Source: a virus
Strand: one strand, 5' to 3'
Virus genome (UHGV): UHGV-0096558
Length of the DNA: 54,457 nucleotides
The notes beneath the pieces were generated by a model that saw only the letters and a program-made list of their open reading frames with translations, did no database searches and was not told where the DNA came from. Position 1 is the stretch's first letter. The number at the start of each line of letters is the position of its first letter. The translations under genes and the position numbers were made by a program. Positions 155 through 33,120 of the stretch are shown here, piece by piece.

Positions 155-814
155 TTAATTCCAGTTGCAAGCGTTTTTTACTTTGTCGATGTGGTTATAA
201 AGACCATCAATGTTAAACACTGCTTTCTCAATGTCGCCAGCTTCCGGCACTACTTCAATGATAAATTGTTTTTCGTTAACCAGATTTTTAATCATTGGAA
301 TGGCTTTTTTGCCGTTCCATAATCCAAGAGCTTTATAGTTAGTTGACCGCCCCCATTCAGTGGCTACAGCTTTGTGATCACCGATCCGGTAGTTAATATA
401 AGTAGTGTCCCCGGCGTCAGTTACACGGTGTGACCATGCTACGAACATTTTTGTTTTATTACCCTGGCAAGCAATTGTTAATACCGGTTTATTCTTATCC
501 TGTGCCTTCAGTGCCGGGAAGGCATCAAGACTTCCGCTGAAATGATCTGCTTTCACAAAAAGGAACACGTTTTTTGTGTCCTGCATATCATCTTTTCTTT
601 CGACCACAAGCCACTGTTTACCAGCTTTTTCTTTTGCTAACTGTGCCTCATATGCGGCTTGTTTTGCTTGTTGTTCCGCAAGCCATTTAGCATTTTTCTC
701 AGCCAATGCTTGTTGTTCTTGAGTGGTCACTATAGGCGCTTTTTCATTATCCTCATTGCAACCAACCAGACCCAATACCGCCGCAATCATTGCCACTTTT
801 GCTAACCGTTTCAT
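155..814 (-). CDS. lipoprotein, 219 aa (signal peptide with lipobox LVGC, coiled-coil segment, C-terminal globular domain); cargo gene
   Basis: ORF track; N-terminus MKRLAKVAMIAAVLGLVGC; RBS GGGGTGGG upstream of ATG at 814. Confidence 0.65.
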   Translation of the reverse strand: MKRLAKVAMIAAVLGLVGCNEDNEKAPIVTTQEQQALAEKNAKWLAEQQAKQAAYEAQLAKEKAGKQWLVVERKDDMQDTKNVFLFVKADHFSGSLDAFPALKAQDKNKPVLTIACQGNKTKMFVAWSHRVTDAGDTTYINYRIGDHKAVATEWGRSTNYKALGLWNGKKAIPMIKNLVNEKQFIIEVVPEAGDIEKAVFNIDGLYNHIDKVKNACNWN

Positions 815-5909: not shown

Positions 5910-6614
5910 ATGCGCAATATTCCGAGAGAGATGATTATTGATTCCGTCGATGCCGGAGTCGGCGCGGTCATCGACTTATTTGAACTGGACCTGACCCCAC
6001 TTGGCGGCGAGGTTGTCCGCTTCCATTCCGGCGCTAATGGCTATTACGGGAATGTTATCTGGAAGGGTATCGCTTACAACAGCTACCCGATCGAAGTTAG
6101 CGGCTTCGAAATGAAAAACGAGGGGGTATACGCGCGGCCTCAAATGGCAGTAGCCAACATCGGCGGCCTTATTACCGGAATGAATAACGACTTTAACGAC
6201 CTTCGCGGAATGAAAGTTACCCGCCGCCAGGTGGAGGTTAAATACCTGGACGCTGTTAACTTCCCTAACGGCAATCCAGATGCAGATCCTTCTATTGAGG
6301 CGGTATCTGTTTACGTTGTCGAGGCAATGAGTGAAGAAACGGCGGAGCAAGTACAGTACGAACTATCAACGCCAGTAGACGCAGACAAGGCTGTTATACC
6401 TGGGCGCACCATCCTTGCTGACGTTTGCCAGTGGCAATATCGCGGAGACGGTTGCGGATATAGCGGCGGCCCGGTAGCGACTGATAAAGATGCGCCGACC
6501 AGTGATCCAACATTGGATAAATGCAGCCACCGCCTCAGCGGTTGTCGCTTGCGCTTCCCGCGCCCGAATCCGTTACCAATTTCATGTTTCCCCGGATCAA
6601 GCAAGGTGGGCTAA
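5910..6614 (+). CDS. L: minor tail protein L
   Basis: Recognisable similarity to lambda gpL (EIDLT..GGE, ...RRKV..R.LDAVNF.NGN..ADP..., ...W.YRGD.CGYSG..., DKCS..LSGC). Confidence 0.9.
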   Translation: MRNIPREMIIDSVDAGVGAVIDLFELDLTPLGGEVVRFHSGANGYYGNVIWKGIAYNSYPIEVSGFEMKNEGVYARPQMAVANIGGLITGMNNDFNDLRGMKVTRRQVEVKYLDAVNFPNGNPDADPSIEAVSVYVVEAMSEETAEQVQYELSTPVDADKAVIPGRTILADVCQWQYRGDGCGYSGGPVATDKDAPTSDPTLDKCSHRLSGCRLRFPRPNPLPISCFPGSSKVG

Positions 6615-15916: not shown

Positions 15917-16182
15917 GTACCATTGTGTGTACCATATTATCTTAAGGTTAAATGAGATATGAATAAAATAATGATTTATATATCGTTTTTGCCACTTTGC
16001 ATAATGTCTCTTTCTAATGCTACATACCGCGCACAAGCGTAAACATACGCAAGCAAAATCACCCCTAACACCATGAATTTAGTAGATTTACTTGTTTTCG
16101 CTGTAAACAAGCGCGCTTTTGCGTTATATTGCGTAAACCATGATTTGTGTACCAGGTTGTGCACCAAATAAGGGGGGCGATT

Positions 16183-17403
16183 ATGGCGTTATCTGACACT
16201 AAGTTAAGAAGCATCCACGGTAAAAGTTATGATGGTCCGGTCGAGATCCCGGATGGCGGCGGTCTGTCAGTAAGGGTAAGCCCGAAAGGCGTAATTACGT
16301 TTCAGTATCGCTACAGGTATGACGGGAAGCCTAAAAGAATGAAGCTAGGCAACTATGGCATAATGACGCTAAAGGAGGCCAGGCTAGCGGTAATTGAGTG
16401 CAAGGCGATATTAGCAGACGGCAAAGATCCAGGACTTGCTAAGAAGCAGCGCATTGACGAGGCGAGGGCGAGAGCAACCGTTAGCGATATCGTGAACAAC
16501 TATCTGAATAAACAGACGACCAGGGAAATTAAGGGATACAAAGAGATCAAGCAAAACTTACAAAAGCACATAATCAAGAGGTATGGCGATTTTATTGTGG
16601 ATGACATTAACGCTAGGGCGTGGGAGGCAATATTCTCAGAGATAACGAAAGCGGGCCATCCGGTACAGGCTGGCGCGATGTTGCGCCGCATGAAATCCAT
16701 TGTCGCTATGGCGCAAAGGAAAGGGATAGTAAAAGACAACGAGATCCGCTTGTTGCGAGTGGAAGACGTTGGCAAACCGCCGCGCAAGATCGACAGATAT
16801 TTATCGGGCGAGGAAGTAGGGGAATTCTGGCGTTTTACGGCTGGCGATTTTATGTCTAAGGCCAATATGACATTCTTCAGACTACTGCTATTAACAGGAT
16901 GCAGGACGGTAGAATTGAGGCTAGCAAAGCGTGAACATTTTGATCTCAATAACAGGGTATGGAATATCCCTGCGGAACTATCAAAAAACAAAAAGCGGTT
17001 TACGCGCGGCCTGTCAACGTTAAGCGTAGAGCTATTAAGCATGATGTTTGATTGCCACGGCTTCAACATAGTTTTCCCTGCGGTATTGTCGCTGGATGGT
17101 AAACCAATGGATAAAGCTGTGTGCACAAGACTAGCGACAAGGCTTAGTAATGAAATTGGATTTAAGGCGGGTTTTACTGCGCATGATTTGCGCCGGACGT
17201 GCCGCACGCATTTAGCGGCATTAGGCGTGACCGCCCAGGTAGCCGAAAAAATGTTGGGCCATACCCTGGGCGGAGTATTAGGAGTTTATGACAGATATGA
17301 TTATGTAGAAGAACAGAAAGACGCTGCGGAATTATGGGCTAATTACGTTTTATCAGTATCAGAAAGCAAGCCTACTGACTTAAAGAACTGCATTACATCT
17401 TGA
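16183..17403 (+). CDS. int: tyrosine integrase, P4/CP4-57 type
   Basis: ATG at 16183 with RBS AAGGGGGG; N-terminal arm-binding region (GGGLSVRVSPKGVITFQYRYRYDGKPKRMKLG) and C-terminal HDLRRT...H..G...Y catalytic motifs. Confidence 0.9.
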   Translation: MALSDTKLRSIHGKSYDGPVEIPDGGGLSVRVSPKGVITFQYRYRYDGKPKRMKLGNYGIMTLKEARLAVIECKAILADGKDPGLAKKQRIDEARARATVSDIVNNYLNKQTTREIKGYKEIKQNLQKHIIKRYGDFIVDDINARAWEAIFSEITKAGHPVQAGAMLRRMKSIVAMAQRKGIVKDNEIRLLRVEDVGKPPRKIDRYLSGEEVGEFWRFTAGDFMSKANMTFFRLLLLTGCRTVELRLAKREHFDLNNRVWNIPAELSKNKKRFTRGLSTLSVELLSMMFDCHGFNIVFPAVLSLDGKPMDKAVCTRLATRLSNEIGFKAGFTAHDLRRTCRTHLAALGVTAQVAEKMLGHTLGGVLGVYDRYDYVEEQKDAAELWANYVLSVSESKPTDLKNCITS

Positions 17404-22500: not shown

Positions 22501-23016
22501 TTATATGCTTCTTCTACCATGTCGAATACTTCCGGCCTGTAATAGAAAAAACTCATTACTACCATCAAATTTTACAGGGAAGTTAATTTTATAATTGCTA
22601 AAAGCCTTATGCATCGTGCTTTCTAATTCATGGATATTTTCAGTTGGCCCTTCTAACGTTTTCACGATATGCAAATCAGGAATTCTAACACCTGCTTTAT
22701 GTGCGCTTTTTAATATTTCATTTCTTCGCTCGTTCTCCTTAACGCTTACACCAATTTTCATTTGTGTAGGCACTTCCAGATCGTCAGTCATGATGTAAAG
22801 TTTACCGCGCTCATGACGAAGAAAGCCGTATTTTGCGCATTTTGGACAGCCGTCGCCGCGCTTAAGGTTGTGGGGTGTACACATCCTTTTATGGCCACAA
22901 ACTCTGCAGCGGCATAATACTTTTGTTTTGCTATTAATAATTTTCCCCAGCACTTCAACATCAGGATTAACTTTCGCAATAGCGGCAACATGTTCCTCAT
23001 GTGTTAACTTACACAT
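22501..23016 (-). CDS. T5orf172 / GIY-YIG-like domain protein with N-terminal zinc ribbon (CRCRVCGH...CPKC)
   Basis: Cys4 cluster and ...LYIMTDD...KIGVS...ENERRNEI... pattern. Confidence 0.45.
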   Translation of the reverse strand: MCKLTHEEHVAAIAKVNPDVEVLGKIINSKTKVLCRCRVCGHKRMCTPHNLKRGDGCPKCAKYGFLRHERGKLYIMTDDLEVPTQMKIGVSVKENERRNEILKSAHKAGVRIPDLHIVKTLEGPTENIHELESTMHKAFSNYKINFPVKFDGSNEFFLLQAGSIRHGRRSI

Positions 23017-24699: not shown

Positions 24700-25347
24700 A
24701 TGAAAACAAAATGGTATGACTTAGCAAAGCAGCTCATGCGAGCGCAAGGTATGAGCCAAGATTCACTCGCGGATCTCATGGGGATAACTAAAGGCGGCCT
24801 GTCACACTGGCTTAACGGTCGCCGCGAGCCAAATCTTGAAGATATTGCGCGGATTATGCGGGCGCTTGGTCGTCGGCAATTCACTGTTACACATGATGGA
24901 ATGGTCATTGATGATTCTGTTTCTAACACGTTACCGGGAGCGCCGCAGCGTGATTTAGGTAGTTACCCGGTTGTTGACTGGAAGGACACAGTAAACAATA
25001 TGGATGATACAAGGCTATCAACATTACCACACGTTACGACTAGCGTTATTTGTTCAGATGATAGTTACTGGCTGGTTGCCAAAGGTGAATCAATGAACGC
25101 GCCGCAGGGGTTGAGCATCCCGGCGGGGACGATGATACTTGTTGACCCGCACGCGCCAGCTATTGACGGCAAACTGGTTATAGCCCAGCTTGAGGAAGGG
25201 CAGATACCGACGTTTAAACAGTTGATTATTGATGGAGGTCAAAGGCTTTTACGTTCGCTCAATCCGCTGTATCCGCCAATCCCTATGAATCCAGAATCAA
25301 AAATTATAGGCGTGGTGGTTGATGCGAAGATCGTAAACCTGCCATAA
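24700..25347 (+). CDS. cI: CI-like repressor (HTH plus S24 LexA-type autopeptidase domain)
   Basis: N-terminal HTH (SQDSLADLMGITKGGLSHWLNG); C-terminal ...LVAKGESM... and ...VVVDAKIVNL; divergent from replication operon. Confidence 0.85.
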   Translation: MKTKWYDLAKQLMRAQGMSQDSLADLMGITKGGLSHWLNGRREPNLEDIARIMRALGRRQFTVTHDGMVIDDSVSNTLPGAPQRDLGSYPVVDWKDTVNNMDDTRLSTLPHVTTSVICSDDSYWLVAKGESMNAPQGLSIPAGTMILVDPHAPAIDGKLVIAQLEEGQIPTFKQLIIDGGQRLLRSLNPLYPPIPMNPESKIIGVVVDAKIVNLP

Positions 25348-30134: not shown

Positions 30135-30327
30135 ACACTATAGGGAATGGAAAATTCCAGAAGCAGCAACAAAGGCAGCGCCAGGAAATTTTTCTGGCGT
30201 TTATTTTTATATGGATGGCAAATGGTATTTCGGCAGCAGGCCGGATCACTATTATCAGGAAATGTGCAAGCCTCACGTATGGGATATTAAAGAGCGCGTG
30301 AAAGGCGGGGTAATTGAGGACGTTTAA
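30124..30327 (+). CDS. hypothetical protein, 67 aa
   Basis: ORF track. Confidence 0.5.
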   Translation: MKFKHYREWKIPEAATKAAPGNFSGVYFYMDGKWYFGSRPDHYYQEMCKPHVWDIKERVKGGVIEDV

Positions 30328-30328
30328 A

Positions 30329-30565
30329 ATGCTTAAGAGCTTTTTTAACTGGTTGGGGGCGTGGCTTTTGGCTACGCTTTTTGTTTTCCTGGCGGCCCTG
30401 ACTGTTATCGGTGTTATTATGCTGGGGGCTATGTTTATTACGTGGTCGCTTCCTGAATTTAACGACATTGGGAATATTCTTTTTGCAGCCCGCGCTTTAT
30501 TGGCTGTGAGCGCATTCATTGGTTTTTGCTGGACTGCTGCGCCGGATTGGGATGATACATGGTGA
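30329..30565 (+). CDS. membrane protein, 78 aa, two predicted TM helices
   Basis: ATG at 30329 with RBS GAGGA; ORF track 30314..30565. Confidence 0.5.
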   Translation: MLKSFFNWLGAWLLATLFVFLAALTVIGVIMLGAMFITWSLPEFNDIGNILFAARALLAVSAFIGFCWTAAPDWDDTW

Positions 30566-30812: not shown

Positions 30813-31352
30813 ATGAAAAATGATTACGGCGGCAGCCATACGCCGAAAGAAATAAAAGACTTATGGCAAACGCCAAAACCCGTTTTTAGAGGAATGGATC
30901 GGGAATTCGAATTCGTCGCGGACGTGGCGGCAAACAAGGCAAACGCATTAATCCCGCGATATATAACAGAAGAAATGGACACGTTGCATTATCCGTGGGG
31001 AGCGGTGGCAATGCCTGGTGAGTATGTCTGGCTTAATCCACCATATTCTAATCCGGGGCCATTCGTTGATAAGGCGGCGATTGAACACAGCCGAAACCAT
31101 ATCGGATGCGTAATGTTATTGCCCGCTGACATTTCTGTTAGCTGGTTTATGAATGGCGTGGAGACGGCAAATGAATGCCGATTAATCACGCGCGGGCGGC
31201 TGGCGTTTATCAATGCTGCGACAGGGAAACCAGCAAGCGGAAATAATAAGGGTAGCTTGTTTTTGATCTGGCATCCACGGTGCAGACATGAATGTATTTT
31301 CACGCAGATAACACGTAAAGAGCTATACGCAAGAGGTGCAGAAAATGAATAA
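30813..31352 (+). CDS. DNA N6-adenine methyltransferase, phage Dam-like orphan methyltransferase
   Basis: NPPY motif (WLNPPYSN) and surrounding pattern; RBS AAGGGGG. Confidence 0.75.
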   Translation: MKNDYGGSHTPKEIKDLWQTPKPVFRGMDREFEFVADVAANKANALIPRYITEEMDTLHYPWGAVAMPGEYVWLNPPYSNPGPFVDKAAIEHSRNHIGCVMLLPADISVSWFMNGVETANECRLITRGRLAFINAATGKPASGNNKGSLFLIWHPRCRHECIFTQITRKELYARGAENE

Positions 31353-31857
31353 AGCGGCTGAATTGCTGAGACTTGCGGCTGAAACTATCGAGGCTAGAGG
31401 GGAGCAAAACGGATACGATCGAAAAGAAGAGAAATCAGCGCCAAAAATAGCGGCTATTTTCAACGCTAAGATGAATGCAAATTTGACCCCGCTTGATGTA
31501 TGGGATCTAATGATTTGCCTCAAGGAAGCGCGTTTAGGGGCTATTCTCGCTAATGGAACTGATCCGCTCGACACTCTTATAGACCTTATTGCTTATAACG
31601 CGCTTAAGGCCGAACAAATATTAACGGAGCGGGAGGATGAGCAAAAGAAAAAACAGGGCGTTTTTGATCTCCCTATCGGTGGATTGAAGAAAACTTTTGC
31701 TGACCTTGCCGGACCAGAACCATCTATTGTACCGGGGACAATCCCACCCGTGATGTTTAACGGTGGTGAGATTACTAATCGGCTTGATGTGAAGTTTGAC
31801 AACGAATCGCTATTACGCGCGGCGGGGTATCATAAAAATGGAAAGGGTGACAATTGA
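31345..31857 (+). CDS. hypothetical protein, 170 aa
   Basis: ATG at 31345 with RBS AAGAGGTG. Confidence 0.55.
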   Translation: MNKAAELLRLAAETIEARGEQNGYDRKEEKSAPKIAAIFNAKMNANLTPLDVWDLMICLKEARLGAILANGTDPLDTLIDLIAYNALKAEQILTEREDEQKKKQGVFDLPIGGLKKTFADLAGPEPSIVPGTIPPVMFNGGEITNRLDVKFDNESLLRAAGYHKNGKGDN

Positions 31858-32341
31858 CAGGTTATTAGCCTGCGTTTATGTCGCCGTTTTTGTGATCATC
31901 AATCTTATTGTTAATCATTGCGGCCCGTGGGTAATTCCGATCACCACGGTAGCCGCCGTGTGTGTCAATATGATGATCCGTGACCTCCTGTTATATGACG
32001 GCGGCCTGAAATGGTCGGCTACAACATGCGCCGCCGCTGGCGCAATCACGGTGCTGATAAATTACGACGCAGGAATGGTGGCGATCGCGTCATTCGTTGC
32101 GGTTGTTTCCGGTGCGCTTATTTCTGGCGGCGTTTACCGGGTTTTACCTGGTGATTTCGATTCGAAACGCTGGCCTGCAAATATAGCGTCCGCCATTGGT
32201 GATGCGTTAATTTTTCCTACGCTATCGTTTATGGCGTTTATGCCGGAAATATCAGCTATGCAATTCATCTCAAAAATGGCAGCGGTAACGGTGATCACCA
32301 TCATTATGCGCCGCTATTTCACGTTTGAGGGTAGAAAATGA
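31838..32341 (+). CDS. integral membrane protein, about 167 aa, 4-5 predicted TM helices
   Basis: ORF track 31796..32341; strongly hydrophobic. Confidence 0.5.
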   Translation: MERVTIDRLLACVYVAVFVIINLIVNHCGPWVIPITTVAAVCVNMMIRDLLLYDGGLKWSATTCAAAGAITVLINYDAGMVAIASFVAVVSGALISGGVYRVLPGDFDSKRWPANIASAIGDALIFPTLSFMAFMPEISAMQFISKMAAVTVITIIMRRYFTFEGRK

Positions 32342-33120
32342 GCAGGGCTAAACATTGGTTAAATAATTGGCTTAGAAGTTGGGTGGTGTGGTCGCTGTAC
32401 GACGGCAGCGGGTACGCCGTTAAAGATTGGGCGGAAGCAGGATATAAGTGCTATTGCTTCAACTATGACGGCGCAAATCACGGCGATTATGAAGGCGTTA
32501 AAATCATTCATCCAAATATTGAATACGTTAACGTATGGATTGACAACCATTTCCTGGTAATGTTCTCCCCTGAATTGTCTGTTTATCCAGAGCCTGACAT
32601 TATCTTGGGCTTTCCTCCATGCGACCATCTCGCCGTGTCCGGCGCTCGTTGGTTCGCTGATAAACGTAAAAAAGATCCTGACTTCCAGGTAAAGGCGGCG
32701 TATAACGCAAAAATTGTAGAAAAACTGGCGAATATGTATAACGTGCCGTGGATGGTGGAAAATCCAGTGGGCGCACTGTCAACGTTATGGCGTAAACCGG
32801 ATTTTATCTTCAATCCTTGCGCTTACGGTGGCTACCTGCCGGAAGATGACAAGCATCCTGCTTTCCCTGATGTTTACCCACCGCGCGACGCGTACACGAA
32901 GAAAACTTGCATATGGTGCGGCAACGGATTCAGGCAGCCGCTTTTTAGACCTGTAGATCTTAACTCTGGTGATAACCCTGGGTGGGCGAAAACCGGAGGC
33001 AGGACGAAACGAACAAAGATGATCCGCTCACTAACACCGCGTGGCTTTGCCCGTGCTGTATTCTTGGCTAACGACCGGGCCATCACGCGGACTACGCTTA
33101 ACCGCGTTTTACCGGACTAA
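32338..33120 (+). CDS. DNA cytosine-5 methyltransferase-like protein, 260 aa
   Basis: C5-MTase-like motifs: GFPPCDHLAVSG (PC motif) and MVENPVGAL (ENV motif); N-terminal Gly-rich motif. Confidence 0.65.
   Translation: MSRAKHWLNNWLRSWVVWSLYDGSGYAVKDWAEAGYKCYCFNYDGANHGDYEGVKIIHPNIEYVNVWIDNHFLVMFSPELSVYPEPDIILGFPPCDHLAVSGARWFADKRKKDPDFQVKAAYNAKIVEKLANMYNVPWMVENPVGALSTLWRKPDFIFNPCAYGGYLPEDDKHPAFPDVYPPRDAYTKKTCIWCGNGFRQPLFRPVDLNSGDNPGWAKTGGRTKRTKMIRSLTPRGFARAVFLANDRAITRTTLNRVLPD

Follow-up and report, generated by a model that had tools for sequence, protein, structure and literature searches.

What would a temperate phage gain from two DNA methyltransferases that are placed around a gene for a membrane protein and a gene without an assigned role? 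This question is raised by positions 30813-33120 of the virus genome UHGV-0096558, analysed here as a stretch of 54,457 nucleotides (nt) that is called the window and is about as long as one phage genome. An earlier note on this DNA had pointed to two methylases, one Dam-like and one resembling C5-cytosine enzymes, that bracket a 170-amino-acid (aa) unknown protein and a multi-pass membrane protein, and had called the whole a likely anti-restriction block. The arrangement proved to be as described (179, 170, 167 and 260 aa). The interval is filled exactly by four plus-strand open reading frames (ORFs), numbered here as genes 1 to 4:

30813..31352, plus strand: gene 1, phage Dam-type N6-adenine DNA methyltransferase, 179 aa (PF05869, TIGR01712, phrog_111)
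31345..31857, plus strand: gene 2, DUF6378 protein, 170 aa (PF19905); alternative GTG start at 31336
31838..32341, plus strand: gene 3, small YhhQ/VUT-family membrane transporter homologue of the putative 7-deazapurine/preQ0 type, 167 aa (phrog_4899, hhalign to the YhhQ of phage CAjan)
32338..33120, plus strand: gene 4, short Dcm-like C5-cytosine DNA methyltransferase, 260 aa (catalytic motifs, fold, phrog_757)

The reading favoured here, with a probability of about 0.62, is that of a coupled early lytic cassette, in which two orphan methylases would protect the phage DNA, a transporter would import a precursor and the DUF6378 protein would have an accessory role.

The overlaps between successive genes measure 8, 20 and 4 nt, with an ATGA stop/start in the third, and a Shine-Dalgarno-like AAGGGGG is present upstream of the ATG at 30813. 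Gene 2 most likely starts at ATG 31345, 8 nt before the stop of the dam gene and in agreement with the annotation of phage mEp021, and gene 3 most likely at ATG 31838, 20 nt inside gene 2, its homologues being 162-167 aa long. At the codon level, comparison of 11-45 related loci yielded median ratios of nonsynonymous to synonymous substitution (dN/dS) of 0.056, 0.205, 0.044 and 0.066 for genes 1 to 4. Because these values lie at 0.04-0.2, all four ORFs are true protein-coding genes under purifying selection, not chance reading frames. A 2.9-kb segment around the block is 87-90% identical at the nt level to eight phage records, including those of the coliphages mEp010, mEp554, mEp515, mEp044, mEp021, mEp013 and MagusPhagus. 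The phages that match the block are the Nus-dependent, non-lambdoid "mEpimmI" temperate phages (PMC11893012). The mEp021 record contains the same four genes in identical order, with genes 30, 32 and 33 labelled putative adenine methylase, membrane protein and cytosine methylase, and prophages in 35 of 5,426 complete Escherichia coli genomes match the block region at the nt level (~90%). Synteny was found in all 45 mEpimmI-like loci from IMG/VR, apart from the cytosine methylase gene, which is lost in six; the same four-gene order is present in a divergent phage contig (L086) at 50-63% aa identity. The block is a translationally coupled four-gene cassette of which every component belongs to a described family.

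The Dam-like enzyme with its NPPY motif was borne out by profile searches. Gene 1 matches PF05869 (Dam) over 167 of the 169 profile positions, with an expectation value (E) of 3e-51 and 173.9 bits (cut-off 28.1), TIGR01712 (the phage_N6A_met equivalog) with E=4e-41 and 140.3 bits (cut-off 97.05), and phrog_111 with E=2e-63. The catalytic NPPY at aa 75-78 (nt 31035-31046) is aligned with that of the Dam of the T1-like phage KarlJaspers, and WQTP and DVAA motifs are found upstream of it. Relatives occur in 1,875 phage records; a PDB sequence search with gene 1 revealed no significant relative. Identity amounts to ~42% with the Dam of Shiga toxin (Stx)-converting phages and to 40% with the Dam-like enzyme of KarlJaspers. 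According to literature cited in PMC7556043, the members of the family from HP1, VT-2 and T1 are Dam enzymes with GATC as their target. By analogy, gene 1 probably makes N6-methyladenine, at GATC as in the characterised members of the family, this target being a reasonable guess because identity to the characterised enzymes is ~40%.

For gene 4, no Pfam match was obtained at E<=0.1 (PF00145 included) and no NCBIfam match, and a precomputed PF00145 match was present in 2 of 120 listed homologues. The divergence and shortness of the family put it beyond the reach of the PF00145 model. Gene 4 does match phrog_757 ("DNA methyltransferase", E=2e-87), and has >7,700 relatives in the protein database, mostly of 226-260 aa. 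Its motifs are located as follows:

32398-32412, plus strand: YDGSG, motif I
32611-32622, plus strand: catalytic FPPC (aa 92-95), motif IV
32758-32766, plus strand: ENP of ENP(V) (aa 141-144), motif VI
32788-32796, plus strand: WRK, motif VIII region
33028-33051, plus strand: SLTPRGFA, motif IX/X region

In an alignment of 35 homologues G-S-G, PPC (P93-P94-C95), ENP (E141-N142-P143), WR(K) with R152, and IRSLT-RG are invariant. Motif I, L-Y-D-G-S-G (family consensus FDGSG), aligns with SLFDG of DNMT3B and SLFSGAGG of M.HaeIII. A direct search of PDB sequences with gene 4 yielded no significant relative; the family profile retrieved just C5 methylases from them, weakly (E ~0.85), with motif I and PC opposite those of DNMT3B and M.HaeIII. 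When the AlphaFold model of gene 4 (predicted local distance difference test score, pLDDT, 86; predicted template modelling score, pTM, 0.85) was compared with the PDB by Foldseek, the catalytic domains of DNMT3A/B came out on top (E=3e-7), and in BFVD phage "DNA-cytosine methylases" were the best matches. The compact C5 methylase that had been proposed from its PC and ENV motifs is supported by these invariant motifs, PC and ENP(V), and by the C5 fold. Between WRK and IRSLTPRGFA lie ~75 residues (aa 154-229), highly conserved in the family, which look like a DNMT3-type minimal recognition region.

A connection to a characterised enzyme is provided by KarlJaspers, the record of which contains a 711-bp "Dcm-like C5 cytosine methyltransferase" that is 61% identical to gene 4 over 234 aa (E=1e-105). 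Retron Ec86 is triggered by the 711-bp dcm of phage K42, a KarlJaspers strain with a nearly identical enzyme; the K42 Dcm produced 5-methylcytosine (5mC) on the multicopy single-stranded DNA (msDNA), as detected by liquid chromatography coupled to mass spectrometry (LC-MS), this was abolished in a C82A/E128A/K175A/K176A mutant, and Ec86 defence required the CCTGG site of the msDNA (bioRxiv 10.1101/2023.08.16.553469). The K42 and KarlJaspers genomes are 95.4% identical, and Cys 82, Glu 128 and Lys-Lys 175/176 of the family member P0108 correspond to C95, E141, K188 and K189 of gene 4. It is probable, by analogy with what was inferred for the K42 relative, that gene 4 makes 5mC at CCWGG-like sites. 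The family was found in 1,516 isolated phage genomes, among them those of Drexlerviridae, Webervirus, rV5-like phages and podoviruses; the gene usually stands by itself, in a replication region.

Counted over 43 informative loci, the C5 gene is deleted or replaced in six, where the other three genes are intact. Three of these relatives (L121, L122 and L124) carry an internal deletion of aa 54-162 by which the PC and ENV motifs are gone; in two others (L123, at 5910-6437, and L133) a 175-aa HNH_3 homing endonuclease has taken the place of the gene, the last 27 codons of which are left; and in the sixth (L130) it is entirely missing. The cost of a Dcm-like gene that triggers retron Ec86 would fit these losses, and sensitivity to the retron may explain both the deletions and the replacements by a homing endonuclease. 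The same link predicts that temperate phages of the mEpimmI type, which are common in the gut, are sensitive to retron Ec86/Eco1.

The two genes between the methylases were present as the earlier note had described them; what it missed is that one contains a DUF6378 domain and that the other encodes a homologue of YhhQ/VUT transporters, which elsewhere are normally partnered with DpdA. The membrane protein, gene 3, has ~6 hydrophobic segments and by itself gave no PF02592 match in a Pfam search. It belongs to phrog_4899 (E=5.5e-47), a PHROG shared with the CAjan YhhQ (E=1e-47), and its profile was aligned by hhalign with CAjan gp41, a "putative preQ0 transporter", over 137 columns with a probability of 97.4% and E=1.4e-11. 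A word-indexed search returned close relatives only; by an exhaustive HMMER search 152 representatives were recovered. PF02592 (Vut_1) is matched by 49 of the 52 HMMER-detected homologues that were aligned (best E=2e-16), and N22, G29, D49, D122, F131 and K146 are invariant across 52 sequences, gene 3 included. E. coli YhhQ, which transports preQ0, is a member of PF02592 (Zallot et al., as cited elsewhere). Judged by its sequence, gene 3 is a divergent homologue of the YhhQ/VUT-family transporters and a putative preQ0 importer. Of the four genes it shows the highest conservation, with 96-100% aa identity across 45 loci and a dN/dS of 0.044 at a median dS of 0.22.

Relatives of this transporter are encoded on 541 IMG/VR stretches. 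In the best 80 of these loci, to which the neighbourhood counts refer, a dpdA-like gene was found in 75 (94%), in 73 cases within 400 nt and on the same strand. The DpdA-like neighbours fall in phrog_887 along with the experimentally validated CAjan DpdA, and an annotated isolate, Pectobacterium phage PEAT2, has the same pair of VUT and "queuine tRNA-ribosyltransferase" genes. These dpdA-yhhQ pairs sit in comparable early or nin-like regions beside RusA-like genes. As a separate observation, the DpdA in these IMG/VR loci (L005-L084) is short (~245 aa; phrog_887 E ~1e-70, no Pfam TGT match), and in at least 73 contigs its gene and one for a ~150-aa YhhQ-like protein stand head-to-tail, often with a RusA-like gene downstream of them. 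The pair is a compact two-gene deazaguanine module that needs an imported or host-made precursor.

No partner of this kind was found inside the window. The best tblastn hit with CAjan DpdA had E=9.6, a hidden Markov model (HMM) of 69 DpdA-like neighbours reached E=0.3 at best against the six-frame translation, and with the CAjan proteins for preQ0 synthesis (FolE, QueD, QueE and QueC) no tblastn hit in the window was better than E=0.77. The transporter occurs without DpdA in three sets of relatives, namely in 45 of 45 mEpimmI-like loci, in the divergent contig L086 (54% identity) and in a further lineage, L087-L091 (46%). In that last lineage an N6_N4 DNA methylase gene is located two genes downstream of the transporter in two loci (L087:6001-8258 and L089), and is not present in the otherwise syntenic L088. 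A fixed pair of transporter and C5 methylase was considered and rejected: a C5-like gene accompanies the transporter in just 2 of the 80 viral loci, and what follows the transporter downstream in L003 and L004 is a gene with no relation to the C5 enzyme.

Gene 3 could also be a leftover of an ancestral dpdA-yhhQ pair, in which dpdA was replaced by dam and the DUF6378 gene, and have no present function. Both the frequency with which dpdA adjoins the related genes and the similar regions that the pairs occupy would agree with such a descent. A relic is, however, not expected to be the best conserved gene of its block, to keep all six family-invariant residues, or to recur without DpdA in two further enterobacterial phage lineages, and the high conservation of the transporter speaks against one. 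That it has no function is highly improbable.

The same neighbourhoods bear on the possibility that the four genes form a single DNA-hypermodification pathway, the transporter importing a precursor, be it a 7-deazapurine, another base or a cofactor, that the DUF6378 protein or a methylase-fold protein installs on phage DNA without DpdA; in one variant the methylase-fold protein would use a cofactor other than S-adenosylmethionine (SAM), as CmoX uses carboxy-SAM (Cx-SAM). The tight translational coupling of all four genes, the preservation of their linkage in the divergent contig and the almost constant association of the transporter's relatives with DpdA in a DNA-modification pair speak for it. 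On the other hand, each of the families is also found by itself in other phages (the C5 enzyme in Drexlerviridae-like, rV5-like and podovirus-like settings), and the six relatives without an intact C5 gene have kept the other three genes. Besides, the K42 homologue yields plain 5mC, and the known 7-deazaguanine DNA modifications all need DpdA, which the window lacks. The use of Cx-SAM in the manner of CmoX was not supported, as the position of the candidate cofactor Arg, read from the alignment with no structure, is variable in the gene 4 family (R/K/L/N/A) and the phage is without CmoA. A common hypermodification pathway is very unlikely.

Because DpdA is required for all known 7-deazaguanine DNA modifications and is absent here, the phage is not expected to carry deazaguanine in its DNA. 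Hutinet et al. noted that some phages encode YhhQ without a clear correlation to their modification pathway. Since the phage is without DpdA, gene 3 would most likely feed the tRNA pathway of the host; import of a queuosine precursor, suggested by analogy, is held with low confidence and constitutes the weakest step of the favoured reading. A broader proposal is that phage YhhQ proteins of at least three enterobacterial temperate-phage lineages have a DpdA-independent use for an imported 7-deazapurine, or a changed substrate. This was suggested by the very strong purifying selection on the transporter and by the presence of a DNA methylase gene within two genes of it in each DpdA-less lineage. 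Such a use might consist in the manipulation of host queuosine-tRNA and translation during lytic growth, or in an unrecognised DNA-modifying activity for which the DUF6378 protein would be the one uncharacterised candidate within the block. As a whole the proposal is rather improbable.

Gene 2 offers few clues to its role. PF19905 (DUF6378) is matched at aa 7-90 with E ~1e-8 to 2.5e-9, the match being confined to the N-terminal 95 residues. This domain (aa 1-95) is helical and nearly invariant among relatives. The C-terminal ~70 residues (31645-31857 of the window) are mosaic in close relatives, with at least three alternative sequence cassettes, and some versions end at 99-135 aa. This looks like a conserved core to which an interchangeable interaction tail is attached, and dN/dS values up to 0.55 were found. 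Four helices were predicted in the AlphaFold2 (AF2) model, which is of poor quality (pLDDT 45). Sequence and profile searches of gene 2 against the PDB found nothing, hhalign comparison with gp39 and gp40 of the CAjan cluster, both of unknown function, was negative, and DUF6378 is mentioned in the literature by name only. Distant DUF6378 genes are located next to genes for an SNF2 helicase, a primase-helicase or ThyX, with no consistent methylase partner.

A restriction partner of the methylases was looked for among the other genes. No restriction enzyme was seen among the larger non-structural ORFs that were scanned, nor among the flanking ipe-like, ninF, ninG, rusA and Q genes; nucleases were represented in the scanned ORFs solely by NinG, RusA and, within the replication module, an exonuclease and a T5orf172-type homing endonuclease. 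Both methylases are considered orphan because no restriction enzyme was found, which is in line with the earlier note. Anti-restriction is the classical rationale for orphan phage methylases of these families. As to the time of their expression, on the map of the mEpimmI phages (PMC11893012) an N-like gene has nutR1 upstream, and nutR2 comes immediately downstream of the gene for the cytosine methylase. This makes the block delayed-early and dependent on antitermination, and the location in an early operon that had been noticed is confirmed by these nutR sites and by the plus-strand run into ninG, rusA and Q. Between 29.5 and 33.5 kb five weak promoter matches were detected, all with a score of 9 of 12, against 7.7 expected from shuffled sequence. 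An internal promoter for expression in lysogens was rejected, as its matches are no commoner than in shuffles. The idea that lysogens acquire a distinct methylation pattern found no support in the sequence, the block being part of an antiterminated lytic operon; leaky expression in repressed lysogens may occur. Neither GATC (265 sites in the genome, ratio 1.03) nor CCWGG (115 sites, ratio 0.90) is avoided, so avoidance is uninformative on specificity. As a side observation, the whole window has 1 CTGCAG (PstI site) against 7.4 expected, and GGCC (ratio 0.70), GANTC (0.69) and GATATC (0.55) are under-represented in it.

The coupled lytic cassette would then operate as follows. During lytic growth the operon would be read through under N-type antitermination and the four proteins would be made by coupled translation. 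The two orphan methylases would act post-replicatively on newly replicated phage DNA, independently of the Dam/Dcm status of the host, and methylation would protect this DNA from restriction enzymes that it blocks, of the DpnII/MboI and EcoRII types. The transporter would import a queuosine precursor, preQ0 or preQ1, for the host Tgt and the tRNA-queuosine pathway and not for modification of phage DNA, whereas the DUF6378 protein would be an accessory protein. An anti-restriction role by self-methylation is reasonable; that the four genes should act as one unit, as the term block had implied, is not needed, since their families occur singly and the C5 gene can be lost.

Several points weigh against this cassette. 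E. coli K-12 already has Dam, Dcm and YhhQ, and the benefit of phage copies is not obvious. Between the Dam of the window and characterised GATC enzymes identity is just ~40%, and the loss of the C5 gene in 6 of 43 informative relatives shows that this gene is dispensable. A transporter whose production is confined to a brief lytic cycle seems poorly suited to changing the modification of tRNA, and deletion of yhhQ in CAjan left DNA modification unaffected. Moreover, in the BASEL study resistance to restriction in Drexlerviridae could not be tied in any simple way to these methylase genes. This last observation, together with the fact that GATC and CCWGG are as a rule already methylated by E. 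coli hosts, would favour methylases that serve mainly other ends, such as epigenetic control of expression, replication or packaging, or the evasion of mismatch repair or of defences that sense methylation, the transporter and DUF6378 genes being unrelated accessory or anti-defence genes that share the operon. The conserved N-terminal domain and fast-evolving mosaic tail of the DUF6378 protein, typical of proteins that meet variable host factors, would suit this as well. The classical tie of such orphan methylases to protection from restriction stands against it, and no regulatory clusters of GATC or CCWGG came to light, no search aimed at them having been made; a main role outside restriction is considered possible, if on the unlikely side.

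The cassette is located between the ipe-like gene and ninF/ninG/rusA/Q, in a long plus-strand early operon that runs through it and on into ninG, rusA and Q. The window further contains:

16147-17403: integrase
24700-25347: CI-type repressor
minus strand: replication module with NinB, DnaB and an HTH_36 initiator

Three other ORFs were noticed. Within the replication module, an endonuclease gene of the T5orf172/MUG113 type (GIY-YIG-like) lies at 22501-23016 (minus strand), with the initiator on one side and an exonuclease-like gene on the other; it probably encodes a homing endonuclease. An 83-aa hydrophobic protein is encoded upstream of the ipe-like gene at 30314-30565 (plus strand; also L002:3830-4066) and is named 'cell division protein FtsK' in RefSeq E. 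coli genomes, a name that seems to be wrong for this small membrane protein of a phage. Finally, a 219-aa ORF at 155-814 (minus strand) gave a hit to PF11319 (VasI, of type VI secretion systems) with E=5e-16; this is unexpected in a phage genome and the gene may be a moron.

By this analysis the membrane protein is newly placed in the YhhQ/VUT family, the C5 enzyme is connected to the experimentally characterised K42 Dcm, and the almost universal dpdA-yhhQ pairing elsewhere is set against its absence here. For the mEpimmI group this means that a "hypothetical" or "putative membrane" protein is a transporter of the YhhQ/VUT type, and that the "putative cytosine methyltransferase" is one of the short phage Dcm enzymes, a family in which 5mC formation and the triggering of retron Ec86 have been demonstrated. 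The conserved orphan transporter poses a small but real question, namely how phages use queuosine precursors that are not put into DNA.

Compared with known systems, gene 1 comes nearest to the PF05869/TIGR01712 phage Dams (HP1, T1, VT2/933W), with which it shares a full-length HMM match above the curated cut-offs and the NPPY; it is likewise small, without a separate target-recognition domain and an orphan in a phage early region. It differs from the Dams of the Stx-phages and T1-like phages in sequence (identity ~40-42%), and its GATC specificity is putative. Gene 4 has the Cys/Glu/Lys-Lys spacing and the DNMT3-like minimal fold of the Drexlerviridae Dcm-like enzymes (KarlJaspers/K42, also the TLS dcm). 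In contrast to the KarlJaspers/K42 Dcm it has a 14-aa N-terminal extension and is found in a temperate phage, coupled to a transporter gene, and its activity and target site are predicted. With the YhhQ/VUT transporters (COG1738, PF02592), CAjan gp41 among them, gene 3 has in common PHROG 4899, the profile match and the ~6 transmembrane segments, whereas its product is ~55 aa shorter than the 221-aa E. coli YhhQ and fails the Pfam model, and no dpdA or preQ0-synthesis genes stand beside it. The phage 7-deazaguanine clusters (DpdA, to which FolE/QueDEC and YhhQ may each be added; Queuovirinae) share with the block just the YhhQ-type component and the early location among DNA-metabolism genes; the block is not one of them, as it has neither DpdA, the transglycosylase that defines them, nor any gene for precursor synthesis. 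Present views on how phages modify their DNA are left unchanged by the block, whose single unusual point is a transporter that is maintained without DpdA.

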